DNA of 64,000 nucleotides from Escherichia coli (lineage in GTDB: Bacteria > Pseudomonadota > Gammaproteobacteria > Enterobacterales > Enterobacteriaceae): the NCBI RefSeq assembly GCF_003334815.1, contig NZ_QOWO01000013.1. One strand, 5' to 3'. Both the position numbers and the translations under genes were made by a program. The notes under the pieces are model-generated. The model saw nothing but the letters and a program-made list of their open reading frames with translations. It did no database searches and was not told the DNA's origin. Below, in pieces: positions 4,985-64,000 of this stretch (its first letter is position 1; each line of letters begins with the position of its first letter).

Positions 4985-5128
4985 AAATACGTCAAAATTC
5001 GTGCCGAAATTGCGCGTTCTGCGCGGAACACGTATACTTTCAGTGTTGACATAATACAGTGTGCTTTGCGGTTACCAGCCGCAGGCGACTGACGAAACCT
5101 CGCTCCGGCGGGGTTTTTTGTTATCTGC
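4985..5128 (+). ncRNA. istR: Antisense sRNA IstR (IstR-2 / IstR-1); 5' end approximate
   Basis: Plus-strand terminator at about 5098..5122; contains the 22-nt repeat complementary to the tisAB leader; position divergent from tisB. Confidence 0.55.
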
Positions 5129-15834: not shown

Positions 15835-16287
15835 ATGATCTGGATAATGCTCGCCACGCTGGCGGTAGTGTTTGTGGTTGGTTTTCGGGTGCTGACATCC
15901 GGGGCCAGAAAAGCGATTCGCCGTCTCAGCGATCGGCTGAACATCGATGTCGTACCCGTGGAGTCGATGGTCGATCAAATGGGAAAGTCAGCTGGTGACG
16001 AATTTTTACGTTATTTGCATCGTCCGGATGAGTCGCACCTGCAAAACGCCGCGCAGGTGTTGCTCATCTGGCAAATTGTCATTGTCGATGGTAGCGAACA
16101 GAACCTGCTGCAATGGCATCGGATTTTACAAAAAGCTCGCCTCGCCGCGCCGATTACCGACGCTCAGGTCAGGCTGGCGCTAGGTTTTCTGCGCGAAACC
16201 GAACCTGAAATGCAGGATATTAATGCTTTTCAGATGCGCTATAACGCGTTCTTTCAGCCTGCCGAGGGCGTTCACTGGTTGCATTGA
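15835..16287 (+). CDS. yicN: DUF1198 small membrane protein, 150 aa
   Basis: AGGAGA Shine-Dalgarno 5 nt upstream of the ATG at 15835. Confidence 0.8.
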   Translation: MIWIMLATLAVVFVVGFRVLTSGARKAIRRLSDRLNIDVVPVESMVDQMGKSAGDEFLRYLHRPDESHLQNAAQVLLIWQIVIVDGSEQNLLQWHRILQKARLAAPITDAQVRLALGFLRETEPEMQDINAFQMRYNAFFQPAEGVHWLH

Positions 16288-21920: not shown

Positions 21921-22015
21921 TGGCGGAAGATCACAGGAGTCGAACCTGCCCGGGACCGCTGGCGGCCCCAACTGGATTTGAAGTCCAGCCGCCTCACCGG
22001 AGACGACGATCTTCC
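21921..22015 (-). tRNA. selC: tRNA-Sec (selenocysteine, anticodon UCA)
   Basis: Reverse complement reads GGAAGATCGTCGTCTCCGGTGAGGCGGCTGGACTTCAAATCCAGTTGGGGCCGCCAGCGGTCCCGGGCAGGTTCGACTCCTGTGATCTTCCGCCA. Confidence 0.95.
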
Positions 22016-26023: not shown

Positions 26024-26038
26024 TCTATTGATGGAATG

Positions 26039-26063
26039 CCGGGTACGTCTGAGTCGTACCCGG
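26039..26063. terminator. Stem-loop between convergent yicI and yicH
   Basis: ccgggtacg / cgtacccgg 9-bp stems; no clear U-run. Confidence 0.4.
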
Positions 26064-26075
26064 CGAGATTGATGT

Positions 26076-27785
26076 TTACCGCACCGGCTCCGTCGATGTA
26101 ACTTCACCGCTGGAAACGATGCCAGCATTCATGGTTTGAGTCACTTGCTGCTTTGCGGCGTTCACGGCATGCAATTGCCCGCTAACCGTAGGTTTCAACG
26201 GGACATTGGCCTGAATATCGCCACTGGCGGTAAGCTGAATATTGCCGTCGCCAGTCAACGGTAATTCAGGCCATCCCCACTGTTGCAAAATATTCACCGG
26301 CACACCGCGTCCATTCAGGCTGATATGTGTCTGACGTTGTGGCGTTTGTGAAACACTGGCGGTGGCTTCCAGAATGCCTTTTTCAGTAAATGCACTCAGT
26401 TCGCTGATATTCACCGTGCTGCTGTTGGCGGTCAGCGCCAGCGACGGGCGACGAACATCAACACGATTGAATGTCGCGGCGGCGGCATTCAGATTCGCCG
26501 AGCCACTCCAGACGCCCCATTTATGATCGGTAACCAGCGTCAGGTTGGCACCGTAACCATCGAGCGCGGTGAGCTGCCACGGGAAGTCAGGGTCGATATC
26601 AATGATCAGATTGCGGCTGGCGCTAAATCTCTTCAGTTGCAGGCTGTTTAACCAACCGGGTGTCGTTTCCATCCACAACTGTTGCCAGTTTTTCGGCAAG
26701 GTATATTCCAGCCCGGCAATTGCCGCATCATCAAGGATCAACGTTTTCCCGTCACGCAGCCAGTTCCCTGACGTTCTGACCATACCCCCTTCCCAGCGGC
26801 TGGTGAACTGGCGCAGCGCTACGCCCTGCGGGGAAAATTCCGTGTTTATAATCGGGTCAAATAAATGCAGCGAACCATAAATGAACTCGCTAGCGTTCAT
26901 CGACAGTTTGCCTTCCTGTGTCTGCCAGTCATCTTTACTGAAGGTCATGTTGCGCAAGCTGAGATCGAGGTCGGTCACCGCCCAGTCCGGACCTTGCAAA
27001 CGAGCATCGATCACTTCCAGGCGACCAATCTGCAACGACGGGACAGAGCGTAATGGCGCAAAGAAGTCGGTTAGCGATTTTTCGCTTTGTAGACGTATAT
27101 CCGCCATGCGCAGGTTTTCCACTTGCCAGCTGCCGTCGGCGTTACGCTGCGCGTTTCCGGTTAATGTCCCGCGGGCGATGTCGGCACCCAGGTTAGTCAG
27201 CGTAACGCGATCGTTATCAATACTGCCTTCAATCAGTACATTGGTGGCAGGAACATCATTGAGCGAAAGCGATCCGGCACTAAACTGAATCTGCGCCTTC
27301 GTACCCAGCACTTTACCGGCTTTTGGTGACCACGGAACTACGCCGCCATTTACCCGCTGCGCGCTCAGTTTCCATTCGCTATTCGGGCTATTAAACGCCA
27401 TATCACGCAGTTGCAGACGATCGGCTTTGAACGGTAGCGGCGCGGTCTGGTCGGTGAGATTCAGCGTCCCGTTTTCCAGCAGGATGGTATCGACATGGCG
27501 TGGTTCGGTCAGTTGCCGACTGCTTAGCGCAATGTCGACACTTTTGGCCACCAGGGTCGCGGGCTGGCCATCACGACCAAACGTGACGTTCTCCAGCACG
27601 ATATGAGATGGCGCGGAAAAACGGTGATCCATCGCCCCGAAGGCCAGATGATAGTCGCTATTCTCGGAAACCCATGCGCTGATATGTTCTGCTCCCCAGC
27701 GGGTTTGCAGAAGAAAATAGAGGCCAGCGATCGCCACTAACAGAGCGATGAGAATGTAGAGAAGCAGCTTCCCAATAAATTTCAT
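26076..27785 (-). CDS. yicH: AsmA-family protein
   Basis: 569 aa from MKFIGKLLLY... with an N-terminal TM anchor. Confidence 0.85.
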   Translation of the reverse strand: MKFIGKLLLYILIALLVAIAGLYFLLQTRWGAEHISAWVSENSDYHLAFGAMDHRFSAPSHIVLENVTFGRDGQPATLVAKSVDIALSSRQLTEPRHVDTILLENGTLNLTDQTAPLPFKADRLQLRDMAFNSPNSEWKLSAQRVNGGVVPWSPKAGKVLGTKAQIQFSAGSLSLNDVPATNVLIEGSIDNDRVTLTNLGADIARGTLTGNAQRNADGSWQVENLRMADIRLQSEKSLTDFFAPLRSVPSLQIGRLEVIDARLQGPDWAVTDLDLSLRNMTFSKDDWQTQEGKLSMNASEFIYGSLHLFDPIINTEFSPQGVALRQFTSRWEGGMVRTSGNWLRDGKTLILDDAAIAGLEYTLPKNWQQLWMETTPGWLNSLQLKRFSASRNLIIDIDPDFPWQLTALDGYGANLTLVTDHKWGVWSGSANLNAAAATFNRVDVRRPSLALTANSSTVNISELSAFTEKGILEATASVSQTPQRQTHISLNGRGVPVNILQQWGWPELPLTGDGNIQLTASGDIQANVPLKPTVSGQLHAVNAAKQQVTQTMNAGIVSSGEVTSTEPVR

Positions 27786-30782: not shown

Positions 30783-30822
30783 CCGATGAAGCGGCGGTAG
30801 AAGTGCCGCCGCAACAAAGACA

Positions 30823-30950: not shown

Positions 30951-33032
30951 TTACGCATTCGAGTAACGTTCCGTCTCCGGCATCCAGCGTTCTATCAGGG
31001 CTTTTGCCTGTTGTGGGTAACGTTCGTGAATATGGCGTGCCAGGCGCTGAACTTCCGGGATCATCGCCTGATCGCGCAGTAAATCCGCCACTTTAAATTC
31101 AGCATTACCCGTCTGACGCGTGCCTAACAATTCGCCAGGGCCGCGAATCTCCAGATCTTTTTGCGCAATCACAAAACCGTCGTTACTGTCGCGCAGCACT
31201 TGCAGGCGAATTTGCGCCGTTTTAGAAAGCGGCGTTTTGTAGAGCAGCACGCAGTGAGAAGCCACCGCGCCACGACCTACGCGCCCGCGCAGCTGGTGTA
31301 ACTGCGCCAGACCCAGACGCTCCGGGTTTTCGATAATCATCAGACTGGCGTTAGGCACATCAACGCCGACTTCAATAACGGTTGTGGCAACCAGCAGGTG
31401 TAGCTCACCTTGTTTAAACGACGCCATCACCGCCTGTTTCTCGGCAGGTTTCATCCGCCCGTGTACCAGGCCAACGTTCAACTCTGGTAGCGCCAGTTTC
31501 AACTCTTCCCAGGTAGCTTCCGCCGCCTGCGCTTCCAGCAATTCCGACTCTTCAATCAACGTACAAACCCAGTATGCCTGACGACCTTCAGTTATGCAGG
31601 CGTGGTGCACGCGGTCAATGATGTCGGTACGGCGGGTATCAGGAATAGCGACCGTAGTCACTGGCGTGCGGCCTGGCGGCAGCTCATCTATCACCGAGGT
31701 ATCGAGATCGGCATACGCAGTCATTGCCAGCGTGCGGGGGATCGGCGTGGCGGTCATGATCAACTGATGCGGATGGAAGCCCTGCTGCTGGCCTTTCTCC
31801 CACAATGCCAGACGCTGATGCACGCCAAAACGATGCTGTTCGTCGATAATCACCAGCGCCAGGCCGTTAAACTGCACCTGTTCCTGGAAGATGGCGTGTG
31901 TACCGACAATCATCTGCACCTGACCGCTGGCGATGGCTTCCTGCTGTGCCAGCCGTGCTTTACCTTTCTGCTTACCGGCGAGCCAGCCCACTTCGATACC
32001 GAGCGGTGCAAACCAGTTGCGGAAGTTATTGGCGTGCTGCTCGGCGAGTAATTCGGTTGGTGCCATCAATGCTACCTGTTTGCCGTGGGCAATCGCACGC
32101 AACGCGGCGAGGGCGGCGACCAGCGTTTTACCGGAACCTACATCGCCCTGCACCAGACGCATCATCGGCACATCCAGCGCCATATCGCGCTCGATCTCCG
32201 CCACTACGCGTGCCTGTGCGCCCGTTGGCTTGAACGGTAAGGCGGCGAGGAGTTTATTTTTCAGCGTGTCATTGGCGCTCAGCGGCTGGGCATGAAAACG
32301 CTGTGCTCCGGCACGTAAGGCTAACATGCTGAGGTTGTGCGCCAGCAGTTCTTCCAGAATCAGACGACGTTGCGCCGGATGCTGCCCGGTTTCCAGATCG
32401 CTAAGCTGTAGCGTCGGTGGCGGGCGGTGCAAAGTGCGCAACGCTTCCGGTAGCGTCATCATTCCTTGTGACAGTTCCGGCGGCAGGAGTTCTTCAATGG
32501 CGCAGGTGTCGAGCAGATCCAGCGCCTGGTCGGTTAATTTACGCAGCGTGGCCTGCTTTACGCCTTCCGTTGTTGGATAAACCGGCGTGAGCGTTTCCTG
32601 TAATTCTGGCGTGCTGAGATCGCCCTGCACGCGGTATTCCGGGTGGATCATCTCCGCACCATATTTACCGCGCTTTGCTTCGCCATAAGCCAGTACACGG
32701 CGGCCCGCCGCCAGGCTATTTTTCATTGCCGCGCTGAAATTGAAAAAGCGCATGGTGAGGATGCCGGAACCGTCGCTGATCTGGCAGGTCATCATCCGCC
32801 GACCGCCGAAGGAGATATTGCAGTTCAGCACTTCGCCTTCCACCGTGGCATAAACGCCCGGCAGTAGTTCTCCGATGGGGTAGAGATGGGTGCGATCTTC
32901 GTAGCGCAGGGGAAGGTGTAAGAGTAGATCCTGCACGGTATGCAGGTTGATTTTCGCCAGTTTGTTACTAAGTGCTGCGCCAACGCCCGTTAGGGAACTG
33001 AGTGGGACAGCATCTAACAGGCGACCTTTCAT
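30951..33032 (-). CDS. recG: ATP-dependent DNA helicase RecG
   Basis: 693 aa from MKGRLLDAVPL...; DEQH helicase motifs. Confidence 0.95.
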   Translation of the reverse strand: MKGRLLDAVPLSSLTGVGAALSNKLAKINLHTVQDLLLHLPLRYEDRTHLYPIGELLPGVYATVEGEVLNCNISFGGRRMMTCQISDGSGILTMRFFNFSAAMKNSLAAGRRVLAYGEAKRGKYGAEMIHPEYRVQGDLSTPELQETLTPVYPTTEGVKQATLRKLTDQALDLLDTCAIEELLPPELSQGMMTLPEALRTLHRPPPTLQLSDLETGQHPAQRRLILEELLAHNLSMLALRAGAQRFHAQPLSANDTLKNKLLAALPFKPTGAQARVVAEIERDMALDVPMMRLVQGDVGSGKTLVAALAALRAIAHGKQVALMAPTELLAEQHANNFRNWFAPLGIEVGWLAGKQKGKARLAQQEAIASGQVQMIVGTHAIFQEQVQFNGLALVIIDEQHRFGVHQRLALWEKGQQQGFHPHQLIMTATPIPRTLAMTAYADLDTSVIDELPPGRTPVTTVAIPDTRRTDIIDRVHHACITEGRQAYWVCTLIEESELLEAQAAEATWEELKLALPELNVGLVHGRMKPAEKQAVMASFKQGELHLLVATTVIEVGVDVPNASLMIIENPERLGLAQLHQLRGRVGRGAVASHCVLLYKTPLSKTAQIRLQVLRDSNDGFVIAQKDLEIRGPGELLGTRQTGNAEFKVADLLRDQAMIPEVQRLARHIHERYPQQAKALIERWMPETERYSNA

Positions 33033-36190: not shown

Positions 36191-39368
<3,178 letters not shown>

Positions 39369-41693: not shown

Positions 41694-42410
41694 ATGCGTC
41701 CAGCAGGCCGTAGCAATAATCAGGTGCGTCCCGTTACCCTGACTCGTAACTATACAAAACATGCAGAAGGCTCGGTGCTGGTCGAATTTGGCGATACCAA
41801 AGTGTTGTGTACCGCCTCTATTGAAGAAGGCGTGCCGCGCTTCCTGAAAGGTCAGGGCCAGGGCTGGATCACCGCAGAGTACGGCATGCTGCCACGTTCT
41901 ACCCACACCCGTAACGCTCGTGAAGCGGCGAAAGGTAAGCAGGGTGGACGCACAATGGAAATCCAGCGTCTGATCGCCCGTGCTCTTCGCGCGGCAGTAG
42001 ATTTGAAAGCGCTGGGTGAGTTCACCATTACGCTGGACTGCGACGTGCTTCAGGCTGATGGTGGCACGCGTACCGCGTCGATTACGGGTGCCTGCGTGGC
42101 GCTGGTAGATGCGCTACAGAAGCTGGTGGAAAACGGCAAGCTGAAAACCAATCCGATGAAAGGGATGGTAGCCGCAGTTTCTGTCGGAATTGTGAACGGC
42201 GAAGCGGTTTGCGATCTGGAATACGTTGAAGACTCTGCCGCAGAGACCGACATGAACGTAGTGATGACCGAAGACGGGCGCATCATTGAAGTGCAGGGGA
42301 CGGCAGAAGGCGAGCCGTTCACCCATGAAGAGCTACTCACCTTGTTGGCTCTGGCCCGAGGGGGAATCGAATCCATTGTAGCGACGCAGAAGGCGGCGCT
42401 GGCAAACTGA
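41694..42410 (+). CDS. rph: Ribonuclease PH, apparently full length
   Basis: 238 aa from [10 protein letters not shown]... to ...[18 protein letters not shown]; 5-G run at 42360..42364 keeps the frame open. Confidence 0.9.
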
Positions 42411-44315: not shown

Positions 44316-45513
44316 AACGGGTCACGATCTCGTCGAGTAATAATTGGCCAAGGAGCTCTTTGCGCTCAAGCGGTAAGACTTTATCTCCGTCCTGCCAGAA
44401 AAGGTGTAATGCGTTGTTGTCGCTGTTAAATCCTTGAGTTGGCTGGGAAACATCGTTCGCGCAGATCAGATCAAGGTTTTTACGGATACGTTTTTGCCGG
44501 GCGTATTCTTCCACATTATTTGTTTCGGCGGCAAATCCAACGACGTAGGGTCGATGGTCTTTTAGTGCGGCAACGCCTGCGACGATATCGGGGTTTTTAA
44601 CCATTTTTATTGTTAATTCATCACCCTGCGTGGCCTGCTTTTTGATTTTCTCTGGGGCCACGGTAGCTGCGCGATAATCCGCCACGGCGGCGCAGCCGAT
44701 AAAAATATTTTGCTGCTGTACAGAAGCATTCACGGCGGCTTCCATTTCCAGCGCGGTCATCACATCAACACGTTTAACAAACGGTGGCGTCGGTAGTGAA
44801 ACCGGACCTGATACCAGCGTGACGTTCGCGCCACGACGGGCAGCGGCGGCGGCGATAGCAAAACCCATCTTGCCGGAGCTGTGATTAGAGATATAACGCA
44901 CCGGATCGAGCGGTTCACGCGTCGGGCCGGCGGTAATCATAATGTTCAGATGTTTCAGGTCGTTGACGGGCGAAAAATGCGCTACCGCCATATCCACAAT
45001 GGTTAACGGATCGAGCATTCGCCCAGGACCGATATCACCACAAGCCTGACTGCCACTGTCTGGCCCCCAGATGAGCAAACCACGGGAAGCAAGCACCTCT
45101 AAATTATGCTGCGTGGCAGCGGCACGGTACATCTGCTGGTTCATGGCGGGGAGCACGGCTACAGGCGCAGGTGTAGCCAGACAAATCGTCGATACCAGGT
45201 CATTCGCCATTCCGGCAGCAACACGGGCAATCAAATCTGCCGTGGCAGGGGCGAGAATCACTAAATCAGCCCATTTACCCAGCTCAATATGGCCCATAGC
45301 GGCTTCGGCTGCCGGGTCCAGCAGACTGTCGGAAACGGGATAACCAGAAACCGCCTGCAAGCTAAGTGGGGTGATAAAGGCTTTTGCCGCTTCGGTCATG
45401 GCTACGCGGACGTCGGCCCCGCGATCGCGCAAACGACGCACCAGTTCAGGGGTTTTATAGGCAGCAATACCGCCGCTAACGCCGAGAACGATTTTTTTAC
45501 CGGCCAGGCTCAT
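44293..45513 (-). CDS. coaBC: Bifunctional phosphopantothenoylcysteine decarboxylase / synthetase
   Basis: 406 aa from [20 protein letters not shown]...; 3' end overlaps the dut start. Confidence 0.95.
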
Positions 45514-49704: not shown

Positions 49705-50022
49705 AGTAAATAGCTGACTTATGGATGTGCTGGGGATTCTATGTATTTAGCTGTGGCTTTACCATTACTTTTCCCGTTTTTGACTTAAATAGCTTCAGTT
49801 TGGTCTGATCTGCCGCTACATCTTCTTTTTTTTGTATTTTTATGCGATTCATTGAAACTCGGCCCCATTTTCAAATCTACATAGGCCGTACTGACATTAT
49901 CGAAATGCTATTTTTTATCTATTTGATTTTTATGATTAAAGTATATTTTGTGTATAAAAATCATTCGGGTCGGATTGCTGCGAAAGAAATGATACACTAG
50001 CACGTCAAAGTAAGTGCGTTAT

Positions 50023-50061
50023 CAGTATTCAGGTAGCTGTTGAGCCTGGGGCGGTAGCGTG
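50023..50061 (+). promoter_or_regulatory. JUMPStart element containing the ops site (RfaH loading)
   Basis: Exact GGCGGTAGCGTG at 50050..50061 in the waaQ leader. Confidence 0.8.
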
Positions 50062-50144
50062 CTTTATTCTGCTTAACTTAACCAGACAATCACACAAAAG
50101 AGTCGCTAGTGGAAAAGCCATTTCGAAAAATCCTGGTCATAAAG

Positions 50145-51179
50145 ATGCGATATCATGGGGATATGTTATTAACTACTCCTGTCATCAGTACGCTCAAGCA
50201 GAATTATCCTGATGCAAAAATCGATATGCTGCTTTATCAGGACACCATCCCTATTTTGTCTGAAAACCCGGAAATTAATGCGCTCTATGGGATAAGCAAT
50301 AAAGGTGCGGGAACTTTCGATAAAATTAAAAATGTGCTTTCGTTGATAAAAACTCTGCGTGCGAATAATTATGACCTGGTCATTAATCTTACGGATCAGT
50401 GGATGGTGGCGCTGCTGGTACGTTGTTTACCTGCACGGATGAAAATATCGCAACTTTATGGTCATCGGCAGCATGGTATTTGGAAAAAAAGCTTCACACA
50501 CTTAGCGCCAATACACGGTACACATATTGTTGAGCGTAATTTATCGGTCCTTGAGCCATTAGGTATTACCGATTTCTACACCGACACAACAATGAGTTAC
50601 GCCGAAGATTGCTGGAAGAAGATGCGCCGGGAATTAGATGCCCTGGGCGTAAAAGATCATTATGTTGTCATCCAACCGACAGCGCGTCAGATATTTAAGT
50701 GTTGGGATAACGATAAATTTTCTAAGGTTATCGATGCGCTGCAACAGCGAGGCTATCAGGTTGTGCTAACCTGTGGGCCCTCGGCAGATGATCTCGCTTG
50801 TGTAGATGAGATTGCACGAGGTTGCGAAACAAAACCCATTACTGGCCTTGCAGGTAAAACACGTTTTCCTGAACTGGGTGCATTAATTGATCATGCAGTG
50901 CTTTTTATTGGTGTGGATTCTGCGCCGGGACATATTGCAGCGGCAGTGAAAACGCCAGTCATTAGTCTATTTGGTGCAACGGATCACGTATTCTGGCGTC
51001 CCTGGACCGAGAATATTATTCAATTCTGGGCGGGGAATTATCAGAAAATGCCGACCCGGCATGAACTTGACCGCAACAAAAAATATCTTTCTGTTATCCC
51101 AGCGGAGGATGTGATCGCCGCTACGGAAAAGCTGTTGCCAGAAGATGCCCCTTCAGCTGACAGGAATGCACAATTATGA
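50145..51179 (+). CDS. waaQ: LPS heptosyltransferase III
   Basis: 344 aa from MRYHGDMLL...; the ORF track's GTG at 50109 would add 12 codons. Confidence 0.85.
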   Translation: MRYHGDMLLTTPVISTLKQNYPDAKIDMLLYQDTIPILSENPEINALYGISNKGAGTFDKIKNVLSLIKTLRANNYDLVINLTDQWMVALLVRCLPARMKISQLYGHRQHGIWKKSFTHLAPIHGTHIVERNLSVLEPLGITDFYTDTTMSYAEDCWKKMRRELDALGVKDHYVVIQPTARQIFKCWDNDKFSKVIDALQQRGYQVVLTCGPSADDLACVDEIARGCETKPITGLAGKTRFPELGALIDHAVLFIGVDSAPGHIAAAVKTPVISLFGATDHVFWRPWTENIIQFWAGNYQKMPTRHELDRNKKYLSVIPAEDVIAATEKLLPEDAPSADRNAQL

Positions 51180-52300
51180 TCGTGGCGTTTTGTTTATATA
51201 AATATTTTCCATTTGGTGGGCTTCAACGTGACTTTATGCGCATTGCATCAACAGTTGCCGCACGGGGCCACCATGTTCGGGTATATACACAGTCGTGGGA
51301 AGGCGATTGCCCGAAAGCATTTGAGCTTATTCAGGTGCCAGTTAAGTCCCATACCAACCATGGACGCAATGCAGAATATTATGCCTGGGTACAAAATCAT
51401 CTCAAAGAGCATCCCGCAGATCGCGTTGTTGGGTTTAATAAGATGCCTGGCCTGGATGTTTATTTTGCCGCTGATGTTTGTTACGCCGAGAAAGTTGCGC
51501 AAGAAAAAGGTTTTTTATATCGTTTAACATCACGATATCGCCATTATGCCGCATTTGAGCGAGCGACTTTCGAGCAGGGTAAATCGACGAAACTTATGAT
51601 GCTGACCGATAAGCAAATCGCCGATTTCCAGAAGCATTATCAAACTGAACCTGAACGTTTTCAAATTCTTCCTCCCGGTATTTATCCGGACAGAAAATAC
51701 AGTGAGCAAATCCCAAACAGCCGTGAAATTTATCGCCAGAAAAATGGCATAAAAGAGCAACAAAACTTATTACTGCAGGTTGGATCAGATTTTGGCCGTA
51801 AAGGTGTAGATCGCTCAATTGAAGCTTTGGCATCGTTACCGGAATCATTACGTCACAATACGCTTTTATTTGTTGTTGGTCAGGATAAGCCGCGAAAATT
51901 TGAAGCGCTGGCAGAAAAACTCGGCGTGCGGAGCAATGTGCATTTCTTCTCCGGTCGCAATGATGTGTCAGAATTAATGGCAGCCGCTGATTTATTACTG
52001 CATCCCGCTTATCAGGAAGCCGCGGGTATCGTTCTTCTAGAAGCGATCACTGCTGGGTTACCTGTTTTAACAACAGCGGTATGTGGGTACGCGCATTATA
52101 TTGCGGATGCCAATTGTGGAACGGTCATCGCTGAACCTTTCTCTCAGGAACAATTAAATGAAGTTTTACGTAAAGCGTTAACTCAGTCGCCATTGCGAAT
52201 GGCCTGGGCGGAGAATGCTCGCCATTATGCCGATACTCAGGATTTGTATAGCTTGCCAGAAAAAGCCGCGGATATCATTACAGGTGGTTTAGATGGTTGA
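51176..52300 (+). CDS. waaG: LPS core glucosyltransferase I
   Basis: 374 aa; ATGA overlap with waaQ. Confidence 0.95.
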
Positions 52301-53090
52301 ATTAAAAGAGCCGCTTGCCACACTTTGGCGTGGTAAAGATGCTTTTGCAGAGGTCAAAAAACTGAACGGCGAGGTCTTTCGTGAACTGGAGACTCGTCGT
52401 ACATTACGCTTTGAACTGTCCGGGAAAAGCTATTTTCTTAAATGGCACAAGGGGACGACATTAAAAGAGATTATAAAAAATCTACTCTCATTGCGGATGC
52501 CCGTTTTGGGCGCAGACAGAGAGTGGCACGCTATTCATCGCCTGAGTGATGTTGGCGTTGATACAATGAAGGGCATTGGGTTTGGCGAAAAAGGGTTAAA
52601 TCCATTAACTCGCGCATCATTTATTATTACCGAAGATCTCACTCCCACAATTAGCCTTGAAGATTATTGTGCCGATTGGGCAGTCAACCCGCCTGATATA
52701 CGTGTTAAGCGTATGCTGATCGCACGTGTAGCAACTATGGTGCGTAAAATGCATACTGCAGGGATAAATCACCGCGACTGTTACATTTGCCACTTTTTGC
52801 TTCATTTGCCATTTACTGGCCGGGAAGATGAATTAAAAATTTCAGTTATCGATCTGCATCGGGCACAGATACGTGCAAAAGTACCGCGCCGCTGGCGCGA
52901 TAAAGACCTGATTGGTTTATATTTCTCATCAATGAATATTGGCCTGACGCAAAGAGATATCTGGCGATTTATGAAGGTTTATTTTGGGATGCCTTTACGC
53001 AAAATATTGTCTCTTGAACAGAATTTATTGAACATGGCAAGCGTTAAGGCCGAGCGTATTAAAGAGCGAACACAACGCAAAGGATTATAA
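52293..53090 (+). CDS. waaP: LPS core heptose(I) kinase
   Basis: 265 aa; 8-nt overlap with waaG. Confidence 0.95.
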
Positions 53091-53126
53091 AAATATTTAT
53101 TAGTATGTACTGGAACTAACTTTATT

Positions 53127-54062
53127 ATGACTATTTATTTTATAAATTGGGTTGCAGATTATGAATTAAAAATGATTCAGTACCTGAAAAAAAAGTACAA
53201 GATAAAAAATATAACAACACCAAAAAAATATAACTGGATTAATAAAAAAATATCAAAAATAGGGATGGATAATGCATGGCTGGGGCGATTATTCATCAAG
53301 CATTACCTCAATGATATTAAAAAAGATGACATAATTATCATTAATGACAGTGTTGTTAATAAAGGTATCAATAAACAAATATTAAAAAATATTAACTGTC
53401 ATAAAGTTTTGCTTCTAAGAAATACTGTTGGCGAAGATTTTATTCTTGATAACGCGAATTATTTCGATATTATATATGATTTTGAGCATAGATTTATAGG
53501 GAATGAAAAGATCAAGGCAATAGAACAATTTTTTCCTATAGGAATGGATGAAATTAGAAATTATAGTTTATCTGACAAAAATAACAGCCAGCCAATATGT
53601 TTTTTCCTTGGTCGTGATAAAGGGCGTCTTCAAATAATTAATGAGTTAGCCGAGAGATTAACAACACTAGGATGTAAGCTAGATTTTAATGTTGTCAAAG
53701 ATAAGACATCATCTACGACTTCAAAGTATTTGATTGAAAAACAAATATCTTATGAAGAGAATATTAGAAGAACATTAAATGCTAATATAATTGTTGATAT
53801 AACCAAAGAAAACCAATCTGGCTGGACTCTTCGTATACTTGAGGCACTATTTTTCAATAAAAAATTAATTACTAATAATATAAATGTATTTGGTTCAGAA
53901 ATCTATAGTGAATCTCGCTTTTTTATAATAGGTCATGATGATTGGGATAAGTTAGAGTATTTTATTAACTCATCTGTTAAACCAATGGATTATGATAGTT
54001 TATATAAATTCAGTCCAGATAAAATGATGTCAACGATTGTTTCTGATTTTATAGACAAATAA
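53127..54062 (+). CDS. waaS: LPS core biosynthesis protein WaaS (K-12 core type)
   Basis: 311 aa; very AT-rich. Confidence 0.8.
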
Positions 54063-54105
54063 AACCGTTAAAACAGTGAGTTTTACTCAATTAATGAGAG
54101 TTTCT

Positions 54106-55185
54106 ATGAAAATAGCGTTTATCGGCGAAGCTGTTTCTGGATTTGGCGGCATGGAAACTGTCATCCGTGATGTTATTACTACCTTCAGGCAACAACATAT
54201 CCAAAGTGAAATGTTTTTCTTTTGTCGTAATGACAAAATGGATAAGGGATGGCTGGAAGGTATTAAATACTCATGTTCATTTTCCAATATTCGTTTAGGT
54301 TTTTTGCGTCGGGCGAAACATATTCATGCTCTAAGTAAATGGCTTCAGGAGTACCAACCAGATATCGTTATTTGTATTGATGTGATCTCCTGCCTGTTTG
54401 CCGCAAAAGCACGTAAAAAATCAGGAATTGATATGCCAGTATTTTCATGGCCACATTTTTCTTTAGATCACAAAAAACATGCTGAATATATCACCTGTGC
54501 CGACTATCATTTAGCAATCAGCTCTGGCATTAAACAGCAAATGATTAATCGAGGTGTAGCAGAATCGACGATAAATGTTATTTTTAATCCCGTCGAAACT
54601 AAAGACTCAGTCATTCCCGCGCCCGAGGAAGGTGAAACGGCAACGTTTATTTATGTTGGGCGTATGAAATTTGAAGGCCAGAAAAGAGTTAAAGACCTGC
54701 TTGATGGCTTATCACAAGCGAAAGGTAACTGGAAACTCCATGTATTGGGTGATGGCTCCGATTTCGAAAAATGCCAGGCTTATGGTAGAGAATTAAATAT
54801 TGATGATCGAATTGTCTGGTATGGTTGGCAACAATATCCCTGGGAATTGGTCCAGCAAGATATTGAAAAAGTGAGTGCGTTATTGCTCACGTCATCTTTT
54901 GAAGGTTTCCCAATGACCCTACTTGAAGCCTTGTCGTGGGGGATTCCTTGTATCAGTGCCGATTGTGTCTCCGGGCCTGCTGACATTATTCAACCTGATG
55001 TCAATGGCCATCTGTATCAACCGGGAGATATTGCTGGTTTTGTAACTCTTCTAAATAAATATATAGCAGGTGAAATTCATATCGAACATGAAAAAATTCC
55101 TGCGTCGATCGATGAATTTTACCAATCGAAGTATTACGATAGATTACATAAGGTAATTATTTCTGCTATTTCCCGGAGGAAATAA
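54106..55185 (+). CDS. waaB: LPS alpha-1,6-galactosyltransferase
   Basis: 359 aa from MKIAFIGEAV... Confidence 0.85.
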   Translation: MKIAFIGEAVSGFGGMETVIRDVITTFRQQHIQSEMFFFCRNDKMDKGWLEGIKYSCSFSNIRLGFLRRAKHIHALSKWLQEYQPDIVICIDVISCLFAAKARKKSGIDMPVFSWPHFSLDHKKHAEYITCADYHLAISSGIKQQMINRGVAESTINVIFNPVETKDSVIPAPEEGETATFIYVGRMKFEGQKRVKDLLDGLSQAKGNWKLHVLGDGSDFEKCQAYGRELNIDDRIVWYGWQQYPWELVQQDIEKVSALLLTSSFEGFPMTLLEALSWGIPCISADCVSGPADIIQPDVNGHLYQPGDIAGFVTLLNKYIAGEIHIEHEKIPASIDEFYQSKYYDRLHKVIISAISRRK

Positions 55186-56204
55186 TGCAGCAGGTGTTTT
55201 TCCAGGAAACTGAGTTTCTTAATTCAGTTATTGATTATGATCATAAAGTAGAAACAGAAAATCTTTGTCTGGACATCGCTTATGGAACTGACAAAAACTT
55301 TCTATTTGGTTGCGGAATTTCGATTGCTTCAATATTAAAATATAATGAAGGAAGTCGATTGTGTTTCCATATTTTTACTGATTATTTTGGTGATGATGAT
55401 CGTAAGTATTTTGATGCCCTGGCGTTGCAGTATAAAACCAGAATTAAAATATATCTGATTAATGGTGATCGACTGCGCTCATTGCCTAGCACTAAGAATT
55501 GGACTCATGCAATATATTTTCGTTTTGTTATTGCAGATTACTTTATTAATAAGGCGCCTAAAGTCCTTTATCTGGATGCAGATATCATTTGTCAGGGGAC
55601 TATTGAGCCACTAATTAATTTCTCATTTCCTGACGATAAAGTCGCAATGGTTGTTACAGAAGGGCAAGCTGACTGGTGGGAAAAACGCGCCCATTCGTTA
55701 GGTGTTGCGGGAATTGCTAAAGGTTACTTTAACTCCGGTTTTTTATTGATTAATACTGCCCAATGGGCGGCTCAGCAGGTTTCTGCACGAGCTATTGCAA
55801 TGCTAAATGAGCCAGAAATAATCAAAAAAATAACACATCCTGATCAGGATGTGTTAAATATGTTGCTGGCGGATAAACTTATTTTCGCTGATATTAAATA
55901 TAACACCCAGTTCAGCTTAAATTATCAACTCAAAGAAAGCTTTATAAACCCAGTAACCAACGATACTATTTTTATCCATTATATCGGGCCAACCAAGCCC
56001 TGGCATGATTGGGCCTGGGATTATCCTGTATCACAAGCCTTTATGGAGGCAAAAAATGCTTCGCCATGGAAGAATACGGCGTTGCTGAAACCGAACAATA
56101 GCAATCAATTAAGATATAGCGCAAAACATATGCTTAAAAAGCATAGATATCTAAAAGGATTTAGCAACTATCTTTTTTATTTTATTGAAAAGATAAAGCA
56201 TTAA
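55185..56204 (+). CDS. waaO: LPS alpha-1,3-glucosyltransferase (GT8)
   Basis: 339 aa; TAATG overlap with waaB. Confidence 0.85.
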   Translation: MQQVFFQETEFLNSVIDYDHKVETENLCLDIAYGTDKNFLFGCGISIASILKYNEGSRLCFHIFTDYFGDDDRKYFDALALQYKTRIKIYLINGDRLRSLPSTKNWTHAIYFRFVIADYFINKAPKVLYLDADIICQGTIEPLINFSFPDDKVAMVVTEGQADWWEKRAHSLGVAGIAKGYFNSGFLLINTAQWAAQQVSARAIAMLNEPEIIKKITHPDQDVLNMLLADKLIFADIKYNTQFSLNYQLKESFINPVTNDTIFIHYIGPTKPWHDWAWDYPVSQAFMEAKNASPWKNTALLKPNNSNQLRYSAKHMLKKHRYLKGFSNYLFYFIEKIKH

Positions 56205-56243
56205 AACTGGGAAACTATAAAGTAATGATATAAGGGTAGCATT

Positions 56244-57260
56244 GTGGACTCATTTCCTGCCATAGAGATAGATAAAGTTAAAGCCTGGGATTTTCGGCTA
56301 GCTAATATAAATACTTCTGAATGTTTAAATGTTGCCTATGGTGTCGATGCTAATTATCTTGATGGTGTAGGTGTTTCCATCACATCAATTGTCCTAAATA
56401 ATCGATATATTAATCTTGATTTTTATATTATTGCTGATGTTTATAATGATGGTTTTTTTCAAAAAATTGCAAAGCTTGCAGAGCAAAACCAATTAAGAAT
56501 CACGTTATATAGAATTAACACTGATAAGCTCCAGTGCTTGCCTTGTACACAGGTCTGGTCAAGAGCAATGTACTTCCGTTTATTTGCATTTCAATTATTG
56601 GGTTTAACGCTTGATCGTTTGCTTTATCTTGATGCAGATGTTGTTTGTAAAGGCGATATTAGCCAACTATTACATCTGGGTTTAAATGGAGCGGTTGCTG
56701 CTGTTGTTAAAGATGTTGAGCCAATGCAAGAAAAGGCGGTATCCAGGTTGTCTGATCCTGAATTACTTGGGCAGTACTTTAATTCCGGTGTCGTTTATTT
56801 AGACTTAAAAAAATGGGCTGACGCAAAACTAACAGAAAAAGCGTTGTCTATTCTTATGAGTAAAGATAATGTTTATAAATACCCTGATCAGGATGTTATG
56901 AATGTCTTACTGAAAGGGATGACATTATTTTTGCCTCGTGAGTACAATACAATTTATACAATTAAAAGTGAATTAAAAGACAAAACACATCAAAACTATA
57001 AAAAGCTGATTACAGAAAGTACTCTTCTTATTCATTATACAGGTGCAACTAAACCGTGGCACAAATGGGCAATTTATCCATCGGTAAAATACTATAAAAT
57101 AGCTTTAGAAAATTCCCCCTGGAAAGATGACTCTCCACGAGATGCGAAATCAATTATTGAATTTAAAAAAAGATATAAACATCTTTTAGTGCAACATCAT
57201 TATATCTCAGGAATTATAGCAGGAGTCTGTTATCTTTGCCGAAAATATTACCGTAAATAA
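56244..57260 (+). CDS. waaJ: LPS alpha-1,2-glucosyltransferase (GT8)
   Basis: 338 aa; GTG start; paralogous to waaO. Confidence 0.85.
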   Translation: MDSFPAIEIDKVKAWDFRLANINTSECLNVAYGVDANYLDGVGVSITSIVLNNRYINLDFYIIADVYNDGFFQKIAKLAEQNQLRITLYRINTDKLQCLPCTQVWSRAMYFRLFAFQLLGLTLDRLLYLDADVVCKGDISQLLHLGLNGAVAAVVKDVEPMQEKAVSRLSDPELLGQYFNSGVVYLDLKKWADAKLTEKALSILMSKDNVYKYPDQDVMNVLLKGMTLFLPREYNTIYTIKSELKDKTHQNYKKLITESTLLIHYTGATKPWHKWAIYPSVKYYKIALENSPWKDDSPRDAKSIIEFKKRYKHLLVQHHYISGIIAGVCYLCRKYYRK

Positions 57261-57277
57261 CATTTAACTGGTTTATT

Positions 57278-57976
57278 ATGATTCAGAAGAGCAAGATCAA
57301 AGACTTGGTTGTTTTTACCGATGAAAACAATTCAAAGTACCTCAATGTATTAAATGACTTCTTGTCTTATAATATAAATATCATCAAGGTTTTTCGTTCT
57401 ATTGATGATACAAAAGTTATGCTTATTGATACCGATTACGGTAAATTGATTCTTAAGGTTTTTTCTCCGAAAGTTAAGCGTAACGAACGTTTCTTTAAGT
57501 CTCTGTTAAAAGGTGATTATTACGAACGCCTTTTTGAGCAAACCCAAAAAGTACGAAATGAAGGGTTAAATACACTCAATGACTTTTATTTATTGGCTGA
57601 ACGGAAAACCTTACGTTTTGTCCATACTTATATCATGATCATCGAGTATATTGATGGCATAGAGTTGTGTGATATGCCCGATATTGATGATGCGCTAAAA
57701 AATAAAATTCAGCAATCAATTAATGCCTTACATCAACATGGCATGGTTTCTGGCGACCCCCATCGTGGTAACTTCATTATAAAAAATGGTGAGGTTCGAA
57801 TTATCGATCTCTCCGGAAAGCGTGCTTCAGCGCAGCGTAAAGCGAAAGATCGTATTGACTTAGAGCGTCATTACGGTATTAAAAATGAGATTAGAGATCT
57901 AGGCTATTATCTTTTAGTATATCGTAAAAAAATGCGCAATTTTATTCGGCGTTTGAAAGGGAAACCAGCGCGCTAA
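57278..57976 (+). CDS. waaY: LPS core heptose(II) kinase
   Basis: 232 aa. Confidence 0.85.
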   Translation: MIQKSKIKDLVVFTDENNSKYLNVLNDFLSYNINIIKVFRSIDDTKVMLIDTDYGKLILKVFSPKVKRNERFFKSLLKGDYYERLFEQTQKVRNEGLNTLNDFYLLAERKTLRFVHTYIMIIEYIDGIELCDMPDIDDALKNKIQQSINALHQHGMVSGDPHRGNFIIKNGEVRIIDLSGKRASAQRKAKDRIDLERHYGIKNEIRDLGYYLLVYRKKMRNFIRRLKGKPAR

Positions 57977-58046
57977 AAAAAATCCCACAATTACATGTCT
58001 TCACCAGGACAGTTTTAAGCGGAGTTATTTATTTCACAGGTTTATC

Positions 58047-58898
58047 ATGAAGAATATTAGATACATTGACAAAAAAGATGTTGAAAACCTGATTGAAAAT
58101 AAAACATCTGATGATGTTATTATTTTTCTTTCGGGCCCTACATCGCAAAAAACACCTTTGTCAGTATTACGAACAAAGGATATTATTGCTGTCAATGGTT
58201 CTGCGCAATATCTGTTAAGTAATAATATCGTTCCTTTTATATATGTACTTACAGATGTCCGATTTTTACATCAGCGTCGTGATGATTTTTATAAATTTAG
58301 CCAGAGAAGTCGTTATACCATAGTAAACGTTGACGTTTATGAACACGCTTCCAAAGAAGATAAACTTTATATCCTCCAGAACTGCCTCGTATTACGGTCC
58401 TTTTACCGTCGGGAAAAAGGTGGTTTTATAAAGAAGATTAAATTTAATATTTTGAGACAGATTCACAAAGAACTGCTGATCTCTGTACCGTTGTCTAAAA
58501 AAGGTCGTCTGGTTGGATTTTGCAAGGACATTAGTCTTGGTTATTGCTCATGCCATACTATTGCCTTTGCTGCAATTCAAATCGCATATTCACTTAAGTA
58601 TGCGCGGATTATTTGTTCTGGTCTTGATTTAACGGGTAGCTGTTCTCGTTTCTATGATGAGAATAAAAATCCCATGCCCTCGGAATTAAGTAGGGATTTA
58701 TTCAAAATATTGCCATTTTTTCGTTTTATGCATGATAATGTAAAAGATATTAATATTTATAATTTATCAGATGATACAGCTATTTCTTACGATGTAATTC
58801 CATTTATTAAACTTCAAGACATCAGTGCAGAAGAATCAAAAGATATGACAAGAAAAAAAATGCAATATAGAACTTCAACCGATTCTTATGCTAATTAA
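58047..58898 (+). CDS. waaZ: LPS core biosynthesis protein WaaZ
   Basis: 283 aa. Confidence 0.8.
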   Translation: MKNIRYIDKKDVENLIENKTSDDVIIFLSGPTSQKTPLSVLRTKDIIAVNGSAQYLLSNNIVPFIYVLTDVRFLHQRRDDFYKFSQRSRYTIVNVDVYEHASKEDKLYILQNCLVLRSFYRREKGGFIKKIKFNILRQIHKELLISVPLSKKGRLVGFCKDISLGYCSCHTIAFAAIQIAYSLKYARIICSGLDLTGSCSRFYDENKNPMPSELSRDLFKILPFFRFMHDNVKDINIYNLSDDTAISYDVIPFIKLQDISAEESKDMTRKKMQYRTSTDSYAN

Positions 58899-58930
58899 TC
58901 ATCCTGAAACTAAAATAATATGGTATAAAA

Positions 58931-60004
58931 ATGCGCTTAGGAACTTTTCACAAAAAGAAAAGATTTTATATAAACAAAATCAAGATTAATTTCCTTTCTT
59001 TTTTATTTCGTAATAAAATAAATAATCAAATTACAGATCCAGCACAAGTTAAATCATGCCTTATTATTCATGATAATAATAAACTTGGTGATCTAATTGT
59101 ATTAAGTTCGATTTATCGTGAACTTTATAGTAAAGGGGTTAAAATAACTCTTCTCACAAATAGAAAGGGTGGGGAATTTCTCTCTAATAATAAAAATATA
59201 TTTGAGTTCTGTATTAAAGAATCAACCGGTTTTCTTGAAATGCTTACTCTATGTAAGCATCTGCGGGATTTACAGTTCGATATTGTATTAGACCCCTTTG
59301 AAACTATGCCCTCATTTAAGCATAGCTTAATATTATCAAGTTTAAAAGATTCTTACATTCTGGGTTTTGATCATTGGTATAAGCGTTACTATTCATTTTA
59401 CCATCCCCACGATGAATGTTTAAAAGAACATATGAGTACACGAGCAATAGAAATACTGAAGCATATTTATGGTGAGGGTAAATTTTCCACCAACTACGAC
59501 TTGCATTTACCAGTAGATGTTGAAGATAAAATAAAAGAATTTATTGGAGATACAAGAATAGTCATTATTAATCCATTAGGTGCAAAAAAAATATGCCGTC
59601 TTACGTTTGAGCAAATAAAAGTTATATATCAAGAAGTGAAAACACACTTTGAAAATTATCGGATTATATTTACCGGGTTACCGCAAGATTTATTGACAAT
59701 ACCAATACTTGAAATCGAAACACTACCATTTGATGAGTTTATTTATACCGTTGCGTTGACCAAGTATAGTGATTTTGTCATTTCTGTTGATACAGCTCTT
59801 GTTCATATCGCTGCGGCTTATCATAAACCAACGCTTGCATTTTACCCTAATTCACGTACTCCGGAATATCCCTCGCATTTAATTTGGTCCCCGAATCATC
59901 ATAAATCTATACAAATAGTATCCCCAACATATACGGTAAAAGATATCGATACTGAAACTTTAACTAATTCAGTAAAGAGATTAAGTTGTATAGATAAGAA
60001 GTGA
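58931..60004 (+). CDS. waaU: LPS heptosyltransferase IV
   Basis: 357 aa. Confidence 0.8.
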   Translation: MRLGTFHKKKRFYINKIKINFLSFLFRNKINNQITDPAQVKSCLIIHDNNKLGDLIVLSSIYRELYSKGVKITLLTNRKGGEFLSNNKNIFEFCIKESTGFLEMLTLCKHLRDLQFDIVLDPFETMPSFKHSLILSSLKDSYILGFDHWYKRYYSFYHPHDECLKEHMSTRAIEILKHIYGEGKFSTNYDLHLPVDVEDKIKEFIGDTRIVIINPLGAKKICRLTFEQIKVIYQEVKTHFENYRIIFTGLPQDLLTIPILEIETLPFDEFIYTVALTKYSDFVISVDTALVHIAAAYHKPTLAFYPNSRTPEYPSHLIWSPNHHKSIQIVSPTYTVKDIDTETLTNSVKRLSCIDKK

Positions 60005-60022
60005 GTTTTAACTCACTTCTTA
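59997..60022. terminator. Palindrome between convergent waaU and waaL
   Basis: aagaagtgagtt-tt-aactcacttctt perfect 12-bp stems, overlapping the waaU stop codon. Confidence 0.5.
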
Positions 60023-60035
60023 AACTTGTTTATTC

Positions 60036-61295
60036 TTAATTAATTGTATTGTTACGATTATTAATGACGAGTAAGAGGACTATAGCGGATATAATGATAA
60101 TTGGAATGCTGCGTGCCCATATGATCACATCACTGAGTCCAATCCCCACAATGCCAAGCGTTAATATCAACAAACCCAAAGCTCGTTTTTTATATGCTAT
60201 ATAAAATAGTGAAAAATAGAGGAAAAGTGTGGAAAAAATTCCCATCAGACCTTTCAGTGACCCTGCTTCAATTATCTCATTATGTAGATGTACGTTAGAA
60301 AACTCCAATGCCCCTCTTAGCCTATTGTGTTCTGCAACTAACAAATTCATACTTTCAGCGCGTGACTCTGCTGATCTAAATGAAAAAGGTGACTTTATGA
60401 ATATATTTAAACCAATTTCGTACATTGCCAGTCTTGCACCTAGGGAAGTAACACTATTAGCATTGGTATAACTGTTTAAGTCATTTAATGCTTCATTATA
60501 GCGATTCTGTATTGGTTTATTAAATATAATAACAATGCTAGCTAATATAGCAATTAGTAGAACAATAGAGGAAGTGAATTTCTTGGGTGATTTATTATAA
60601 TAAGCTATTAATGCAGCAACACAAATTATAGGGAACAGGAGTAGGGTTGCTCTGGTTTGTGTTAGCGCCAGAACATAAAGTACCGCGCAACTATTTAATA
60701 AAAATAAAAAAGGATGATTTTTCTTAGTATAAAGAATCGCAACGCCACTAACTATCCCTATTAGCATTGTTGAATATGCTGCTCCTGTTGCCGTTCCTAC
60801 ACCAAAAGAAATGCGGTCATTTTCATGAATGCTATTAATATACATTGCATATCCAGCAATTAGAAATGACAGAGAATACAAAGTGTATAATACACTCTCT
60901 TTTTTTGATTTTAGCTGGCTAGTTAGTGTCAAGAAAACAATAAAAGAACCAAATATAAATATTTTGGCAGTATTTAAATAACTATGGTAAGTAGCACGAA
61001 ATGGCGAATTATCTACTTTAAACGCAGAATACCAAATTAAATCAAGCAAGCCTATTAAAAATATAGAAAGGGGAAGAATAAGGTTTTTTATATTATAATT
61101 TTCTTGTCTGCCACGTAAAATTAGTGACAATAAGCAAACTATAGCAGTGATATTATATATTTTTATGCTGAAAGTATTATCGACGAATGCAATTATCATT
61201 GAAAAAAAACATAATATATAAGTTATTATCTCTAAAATCATTGATGATTTCAGAGTGTAAGGTTTCAATGAATGAAGTTTAAAGGATGTTAGCAT
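60036..61295 (-). CDS. waaL: O-antigen ligase
   Basis: 419 aa polytopic membrane protein. Confidence 0.9.
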   Translation of the reverse strand: MLTSFKLHSLKPYTLKSSMILEIITYILCFFSMIIAFVDNTFSIKIYNITAIVCLLSLILRGRQENYNIKNLILPLSIFLIGLLDLIWYSAFKVDNSPFRATYHSYLNTAKIFIFGSFIVFLTLTSQLKSKKESVLYTLYSLSFLIAGYAMYINSIHENDRISFGVGTATGAAYSTMLIGIVSGVAILYTKKNHPFLFLLNSCAVLYVLALTQTRATLLLFPIICVAALIAYYNKSPKKFTSSIVLLIAILASIVIIFNKPIQNRYNEALNDLNSYTNANSVTSLGARLAMYEIGLNIFIKSPFSFRSAESRAESMNLLVAEHNRLRGALEFSNVHLHNEIIEAGSLKGLMGIFSTLFLYFSLFYIAYKKRALGLLILTLGIVGIGLSDVIIWARSIPIIIISAIVLLLVINNRNNTIN

Positions 61296-63323: not shown

Positions 63324-64000
63324 TTATGCGTCGCGATTCAGCCAGGCCATGTATTCCGTTACACCTTCAGCAACGGTTTTGAACGGTTTGTCGTAACCCG
63401 CCGCGCGCAGATTTGTCAGATCTGCCTGAGTGAACGCCTGATAGCGGCCTTTCAGTTTATCCGGGAACGGAATGTATTCGATCTGGCCTTTCTTGTGATA
63501 AGCCAGCGTAGCATCAGCTACCGCCTGGAAGGATTCCGCACGACCAGTACCGAGATTGAAGATGCCGGAAACGCCATTTTCCAGGAACCACAGATTCACA
63601 TCAGCCACGTCGCCCACATAGACGAAGTCGCGTTTGAAGTTCTCGCTACCTTCAAACAGCTTCGGTGATTCACCGTTGTTAAGCTGGGTGTTGAGATGGA
63701 AAGCGACGCTCGCCATGCTGCCTTTATGGCCTTCACGCGGTCCATAAACGTTGAAATAACGGAAGCCAACAATCTGCGAGTTCGCTTCAGGCAGGATTTG
63801 ACGAACATATTCATCAAACAGGAATTTTGAGTAACCGTAGACGTTCAACGGTTTTTCGTACTCGCGGGATTCAATAAAGTCGGAGGTGCGTCCGCCGTAG
63901 GTGGCTGCGGAAGAAGCGTACAGGAACGGGATTTCACGCTCCAGGCAGTAGTGCAGCAGCTCCTTGGAGTATTGATAGTTGTTATCCATCATATACTTGC
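63324..64000 (-). CDS. hldD: ADP-L-glycero-D-manno-heptose 6-epimerase, C-terminal part only
   Basis: Stop at 63324; reading frame is open to the window end, so the start lies beyond position 64000. Confidence 0.9.

Follow-up and report, generated by a model that had tools for sequence, protein, structure and literature searches.

The LPS-core locus of Escherichia coli raises the question of how transcription is sustained over a long operon, and whether the ops/JUMPStart element in front of waaQ is the site, and the only one in the region, at which RfaH is loaded onto RNA polymerase. The window, that is the whole 64-kb stretch of DNA that was analysed, is a segment of the E. coli chromosome with a K-12-type waa (LPS core) locus. 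Ten genes, waaQ-G-P-S-B-O-J-Y-Z-U (50109..60004, plus strand; annotation transferred from K-12), make up an operon of 9.9 kb in which neighbouring genes overlap or are at most 70 nt apart and the sense strand has 17.1% C. The operon is flanked by waaA-coaD (waaA 48427..49704, minus strand), divergent from waaQ, and by waaL-waaC-waaF-gmhD (60036 to past the window end, minus strand), convergent with waaU. The GC content is 28-36% over the distal part of the operon and waaL (53000..61000) as against ~52% in the flanks, as is typical of DNA that was acquired horizontally and is bound by H-NS. A 12-bp perfect palindromic hairpin (59995..60022, plus strand) of terminator-like form with a weak T-tract overlaps the waaU stop codon, at the point where waaU and waaL converge. 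Judged from its sequence, it likely marks the end of the waaQ operon and acts as a bidirectional terminator. Termination at this hairpin is probably leaky, since RfaH-bound polymerase runs antisense into rfaC in CFT073.

The intact rph gene (41694..42410, 238 codons), unlike the frameshifted rph-1 of MG1655, and the indels relative to K-12 indicate a strain other than MG1655 with a K-12-type core. The waaA-waaQ spacer differs from that of K-12 by one indel and one substitution, and several further indels are found in the window. The rfaH gene is outside the window and its presence in the strain is assumed. Some observations were made at other sites. The K-12 record NZ_CP032667.1 has no waaL CDS at 25037..26296 of its locus (L002; window 60036..61295), where its sequence is identical to the 419-codon ORF of the window; the small proteins YibY and YibX are annotated there on the opposite strand. 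The other Rfam matches (4990..5119, 21925..22015 and 31958..32212) were istR (150 bits), adjoining tisB, tRNA-Sec, and the Yersinia sRNA Ysr141. The last of these is inside recG in antisense orientation and scores 151 bits, below its gathering score of 196.

The interval 50023..50061 (plus strand), which the earlier note had marked as an ops/JUMPStart element, corresponds to JUMPStart in its classical 39-nt form, CAGTATTCAGGTAGCTGTTGAGCCTGGGGCGGTAGCGTG, and is located on the non-template (sense) strand of waaQ, inside the 404-nt divergent waaA-waaQ spacer. The interval matches Rfam family RF01707 over model positions 1-38 of 38 with 55.2 bits (gathering score 35, E=6.4e-10). The JUMPStart sequence reportedly goes back to Hobbs and Reeves in 1994. 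The ops 12-mer claimed to be exact is indeed so: GGCGGTAGCGTG occupies 50050..50061 (plus strand) with 0 mismatches. It agrees with the 12-nt ops consensus GGCGGTAGnnTG, and carries G4, G5, T6, A7 and G8 together with a C3:G8 combination that can pair. Exact-string searches of both strands found GGCGGTAGCGTG once in the 64-kb window, where ~0.007 would be expected for its base composition. The relaxed consensus GGCGGTAGNNTG has its sole perfect match in the window at the same 50050..50061, and no second JUMPstart match was obtained there even when permissive filters were used and matches up to E<=5 admitted. The statement that this is the only copy thus holds within the window for the 12-mer and for JUMPStart. 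It fails for GGCGGTAG, the 8-nt core to which some reviews apply the name 'the ops' (PMC8745692) and of which five more copies are present.

The core GGCGGTAG occurs six times in the window compared with 1.4 expected, and 1 of 100 shuffles reaches six. Four of the extra copies are in coding regions, one is intergenic, and none of the five is in an operon leader. On the plus strand, GGCGGTAGTGTT (15861..15872) is within yicN in the sense orientation, GGCGGTAGAAGT (30793..30804) is in a REP-like intergenic tail past the gltS stop codon, and GGCGGTAGCGAC (39156..39167) is antisense to yicG. On the minus strand, GGCGGTAGCGCA (44978..44989, core 44982..44989) and GGCGGTAGCTGA (63514..63525, core 63518..63525) are sense copies within coaBC and gmhD respectively. 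The three sense-strand copies in yicN, coaBC and gmhD are read in one common frame, nnG-GCG-GTA-Gnn (Ala-Val), and the excess over dinucleotide shuffles is therefore probably due to codon usage. T at position 11 is present in 0/5 of the extra copies, TG or TA at positions 11-12 in 0/5, and a JUMPStart in 0/5 (Rfam search of the window, E<=5). Every RfaH-bound ops listed for CFT073 has T at position 11, in the form GGCGGTAGC[G/A]T[G/A] (PMC9765446 Data set S2). Among 42 ops-like sites in CFT073, RfaH was found only at the 8 that are in leaders, and 22 coding sites on the non-template strand were unbound (PMC9765446). The extra cores were considered as a second ops, especially the one in gmhD, and were rejected: they lack T11 and JUMPStart, the three sense-strand ones share a codon frame, and coding sites of CFT073 that come even closer to ops are unbound. 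Since they are outside leaders as well, all five are unlikely to function as ops.

The waaL-side operon begins with gmhD, which holds one of these cores. The earlier note had also stated that no ops is found upstream of the waaL-side genes. The start of gmhD is at ~64256, outside the window, and so the leader of gmhD-waaF-waaC-waaL is outside too; as a statement about the window the claim does not stand. It is borne out in the K-12 record, where the gmhD-waaFCL leader has no ops-like sequence within two mismatches and no JUMPstart match at E<=10.

The position of the element within its transcript was then considered. A plain sigma-70 -35/-10 consensus scan of the intergenic region found no promoter. 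An extended -10, TGaTACACT (49990..49998, plus strand), without a good -35, is located 7 nt upstream of 50005 and is the predicted waaQ promoter. All E. coli core types share this extended -10 unchanged, and TGnTACACT or TGGTATAAT is found at the same distance from ops in the waaQ leaders of most genera examined. Position 50005 is the annotated 5' end of RirA and of the waaQ mRNA, which places ops at +46 to +57. A start at 50023, the beginning of the CFT073 RNA-seq unit 27 nt before ops, was rejected since 50005 fits both the RirA 5' end and the spacing from the -10. The sRNA RirA (b4760; 73 nt; 50005..50077, plus strand; NC_000913.3 rirA 3808166..3808238, minus strand) corresponds to the 5' part of the waaQ leader. 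It holds both ops and JUMPStart and shares the 5' end of the waaQ mRNA. The window is identical to the RirA of E. coli K-12 at 72 of 73 positions, the one difference being U-to-A at RNA position 62 (window 50066). This position, 5 nt past ops, is A in the window as against T in MG1655 and the other E. coli core types examined, and G in E. albertii. It falls in a U-rich tract that follows ops (50062..50074, plus strand; CTTTATTCTGCTT in the window, CTTTTTTCTGCTT in K-12), and the A breaks the U6 run of the leader and of RirA. A U-run past ops is present in most waaQ leaders of other genera and is not seen past other JUMPStart elements. Searches of the literature on rirA together with Term-seq returned no paper.

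The distance of 84 nt that had been given between ops and the waaQ start is correct as 50145 minus 50061, where 50145 is the ATG of NC_000913.3 (3808098; 344 aa). It is not correct if the upstream GTG is used. PGAP annotates waaQ (rfaQ), encoding heptosyltransferase III, at 50109..51179 (plus strand) with a GTG start and 356 aa. The GTG is 36 nt upstream of the ATG, is annotated by PGAP in every core type, and has 47 nt between it and ops, so that the start is 48 nt past the last ops base. The protein that starts at GTG aligns through residues 1-350 with positions 1-350 of the NCBIfam profile NF007742 (RfaQ). The paralogues WaaC and WaaF (GT9) in the window start with a (K/R)(I/V)L(I/V)(I/V) strand, KILVI, which an ATG start would delete from WaaQ. 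Among 17 loci that encode WaaQ orthologues in other genera (55-98% identity), most have retained the GTG together with an N-terminus of the form V[ED]KPF..ILVIKMR[FY]HGD, and ops is found 35-49 nt before the GTG in waaQ orthologues of many genera. These features suggest that the real waaQ start is most likely GTG 50109, which NC_000913.3 does not use. It is preceded at 6 nt by a weak Shine-Dalgarno-like AAGAG (50098..50102, plus strand), and AAAAGAG is kept in all E. coli core types and in most genera. RfaH operons are described as having no canonical ribosome-binding site (PMC6358824).

Comparison of the waaA-waaQ spacer across E. coli genomes revealed a mosaic. The waaA-proximal ~140 nt are identical across core types and the centre (~49794..49950) is strongly diverged between them, overall identity being 79% in ~4,470 genomes. 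The block from ~49955 to 50067, with the promoter, the 5' end of the leader, JUMPStart and ops, is nearly invariant, and not one position of the 39-nt JUMPStart varies. From the alignment, the diverged part (~49794..49950) looks like the edge of an exchangeable core-type cassette. The conserved promoter and leader block has an IS1 at its upstream edge in strain JMF1.

Within JUMPStart a stem-loop can be drawn at 50030..50048 (plus strand), with arms CAGGT (50030..50034) and GCCTG (50044..50048), 5/5 pairs and the 9-nt loop AGCTGTTGA. Elements of the family were collected from one genome per species with the pattern AGCTG-N(8,9)-GGGCGGTAGCGTG, which leaves the stem free, and at least 122 were obtained. 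Among the matches listed, 111 of these form at least 4/5 pairs of the stem, and all but two of the 111 are from Gammaproteobacteria or unclassified metagenome bins. The two, on a 4-kb contig of Arthrobacter sp. GMC3 with coverage 2 and in an Erysipelotrichia MAG, are perfect JUMPStart elements of enterobacterial type on contigs assigned to Gram-positive organisms, and likely reflect contamination or misbinning. Eleven stemless matches, again among those listed, were excluded as JUMPStart: they are nearly all from unrelated GC-rich taxa, and their number equals the chance expectation for an 18-base pattern. In the sample inspected, the genes downstream of other JUMPStart elements encode Wza, WcaJ, GalU/GalF, a MurJ/Wzx-like flippase and a NeuD-type acetyltransferase, in agreement with the name, 'just upstream of many polysaccharide starts'.

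Covariation in the stem was analysed on the 70 distinct elements among the matches listed. In this set the stem columns, 13-17 with 27-31, were paired in 95.4% of cells, and four of the five pairs showed changes on both sides (C-G/U-A, U-A/A-U/G-C, U-G/A-U/G-C). The covariation score was 0.49 compared with 0.18 for shuffles, of which 0/500 reached the observed value, and controls with slid partners were 16-61% paired. G-U pairs are plentiful in the stem, and the structure therefore belongs specifically to the sense strand. The stem-loop had been noted by Weinberg et al. 2010 (PMC2864571) and is reproduced by covariation here. The window shares with the JUMPStart family the 39-nt length, the 5-bp stem, a loop containing AGCUG, the ops at the 3' end and a site upstream of a polysaccharide or LPS cluster. 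It differs from the commonest form of the element at pair 2, which is A-U (CAGGU/GCCUG) in place of U-A (CUGGU/GCCAG), and from the Rfam consensus in a loop one nucleotide longer; both features are common to the waaQ leaders of Escherichia, Citrobacter and relatives. The 3' end of the stem is 12 nt upstream of U11. A 5-bp stem with an 8-9-nt loop, 12 nt upstream of a paused 3' end, is reminiscent of hairpin-dependent pauses and attenuators such as that of the his leader. Nascent-RNA hairpins act on RNA polymerase at such a geometry, 12 nt behind the 3' end. The ops pause is, however, biochemically distinct from hairpin-stabilised pauses, being pre-translocated or backtracked, and has been studied without the JUMPStart hairpin (PMC11001881).

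At ops, a consensus pause, RNA polymerase halts at U11 and a small hairpin arises in the non-template strand, with C3:G8 paired and T6 flipped out (PMC5995543). RfaH recruitment needs G4, G5, A7 and G8 (PMC5995543). CryoEM has shown that autoinhibited RfaH docks on the ops hairpin, upon which its KOW domain is released and refolds (PMC11001881). The pause of the RfaH-docked complex is hyper-stabilised until anti-backtracking factors aid escape, and ribosome recruitment has been proposed to occur at that stage (PMC11001881). RfaH then excludes NusG, lowers pausing and blocks Rho-dependent polarity (PMC5449661).

Published 3' ends of RNA offer a view of the pause in vivo. In the MG1655 Term-seq data of Adams et al., abundant 3' ends are reported at 3808184 (minus strand; LB, OD 0.4; average read count 62,669) (PMC7815308) and, in another condition, at 3808183 (minus strand) (PMC7815308 supplementary file 3). 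These map to window positions 50059 and 50060, which are G10 and U11 of ops, the pause site. The site at 3808184 was scored there as not Rho-dependent (Rho score 1.04), its score as an intrinsic terminator being 6.28 (PMC7815308 supplementary file 3). The source table lists the G10/U11 3' ends as 'orphan' upstream of waaQ, without a regulatory element (PMC7815308). By transfer from MG1655, these ends give indirect support for a pause of RNA polymerase at U11 (50060) of the ops in the window.

RfaH-dependent operons of E. coli and Salmonella (rfaQ/waaQ, rfb/wzx, kps, hly, tra and wza) have their ops on the non-template strand of the 5' leader, one per transcription unit, as is the case in the window. 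In CFT073 the rfaQ operon has a single leader ops with the identical sequence GGCGGTAGCGTG (PMC9765446 Data set S2). The same 12-mer is found there at the RfaH-bound sites of rfaQ, wzx, wza, tssH and c4518. RfaH ChIP-seq in CFT073 gave a peak of 10 kb that begins at rfaQ, extends through the final gene of the operon and continues antisense into rfaC (PMC9765446). For K-12, reviews and genetics agree on the waaQ operon as an RfaH target (PMC6358824, PMC8745692, PMC5449661), and rfaH mutants phenocopy polar waaQ insertions (PMC5449661). In comparison with the known rfaQ ops no substantive difference was seen in the window, which has the allele of the K-12 core type with A50066 as the change from MG1655. 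The element at 50023..50061 is thus almost certainly the canonical ops/JUMPStart of the E. coli waaQ (rfaQ) LPS-core operon, and by analogy we infer that it behaves in this strain as in K-12 and CFT073. The proposal of the earlier note that the waaQ-to-waaU operon is subject to RfaH-dependent antitermination is supported by the sequence features and the literature, but 'antitermination' needs a narrower meaning. Here it would mainly denote suppression of Rho/NusG polarity, recruitment of ribosomes and counter-silencing of H-NS, and not read-through of one terminator.

Could the match have arisen by chance, without any function? Short 8-nt cores do arise elsewhere in the window by chance or codon usage, as described above, but the expectation of 0.007 for exact copies and the Rfam E value of 6.4e-10 leave such a reading a negligible probability. 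It is already refuted by conservation, since the element stays unchanged among diverged core types and genera and keeps its place ahead of waaQ. A different function, at the level of RNA, is conceivable: RirA, which contains ops and JUMPStart, would bind and titrate RfaH, and the element would be a negative-feedback device and no loading site. The window does encode RirA with one substitution; the titration effect, however, came from overexpression and is compatible with a role of the DNA. At the waaQ operon it is the non-template DNA of ops that recruits RfaH, as structures and ChIP have shown (PMC5995543, PMC9765446, PMC11001881). We consider it very improbable that the element acts by titration in place of loading, and titration is not tenable as the sole function. 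RirA titration and loading of RfaH on the DNA can coexist.

A further alternative would add to loading of RfaH at ops and not replace it. The leader may contain an attenuator at which polymerases without RfaH terminate or stall, giving short RNAs like RirA, while RfaH-modified polymerases read through; on balance this appears unlikely. It is suggested by a predicted outer helix in which 50011..50022 (AAGUGCGUUAUC) pairs with ops positions 4-12, C13 and two U's, enclosing the JUMPStart stem-loop. In this fold ops is the 3' arm, and with the U-rich tract behind it the leader takes on a terminator-like shape. When 17 waaQ leaders of different genera are folded, most of them give this nested hairpin as the predicted structure of minimum energy, and 86.9% of outer-helix cells are paired in these leaders compared with 27-52% with a slid partner. 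Changes on one side of the helix preserve its pairs (U-to-C opposite G12, G-to-A opposite U11 and A-to-G opposite U6) and turn wobble into Watson-Crick pairs opposite the invariant ops. The same invariance of the ops side makes true covariation minimal (covariation term -0.8), and the leaders are orthologous, so that shared descent can explain the pairing. The fold of the leader in the window is no more stable than that of shuffled sequences (z=0.11), and RNA-level claims consequently rest on the comparative data. The simple terminator scan found no terminator in the leader. The U-run past ops in most waaQ leaders, absent past other JUMPStart elements, is in favour of an attenuator, as is the 3' end of RirA (50005..50077) just beyond the U-tract, but the tract is broken in the window (A50066) and in E. 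albertii. RirA itself is said to have been ascribed to processing in the paper that first described it. The MG1655 3' end also appears to favour termination, since it is not Rho-dependent (1.04) and has an intrinsic-terminator score of 6.28 (PMC7815308). These Term-seq 3' ends nevertheless fall at U11, which would be part of the stem and lies outside the U-tract, and a pause or arrest explains them better than termination at a hairpin. A scheme in which unloaded polymerases give rise to RirA-type RNAs, which in turn titrate RfaH, would amount to an RfaH-sensed attenuator with a feedback loop in ~75 nt, and remains doubtful. If it were true, the T-to-A change at 50066 would weaken the attenuator in this strain.

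Loading of RfaH at ops is the preferred reading, and the following course of events can be proposed. Transcription would begin at the extended -10 promoter with a start at ~50005, and on reaching ops RNA polymerase would pause at U11 (50060). On the surface of the paused complex the non-template GGCGGTAG would form a hairpin, with C3:G8 paired and T6 out, that is read by RfaH. The N-terminal domain of RfaH would then lock onto the polymerase, and the C-terminal domain would convert to a beta-barrel and recruit the ribosome to the poorly initiating waaQ message, with its GTG start and weak Shine-Dalgarno. RfaH would ride the polymerase over the 9.9-kb AT-rich operon, excluding NusG, suppressing pausing and Rho polarity and countering H-NS.

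As an RfaH loading site the waaQ ops is textbook knowledge, known since the 1990s and with structures refined up to 2024, and nothing new is added to it here. Small by-products of the analysis are the probable GTG start of waaQ, the Term-seq ends on the ops pause, and the predicted terminator-like outer helix of waaQ leaders. The ops/JUMPStart element explains how a 10-kb, AT-rich and poorly translated LPS-core operon is expressed, and loss of the system leads to truncated LPS, sensitivity to detergents and antibiotics, and avirulence.
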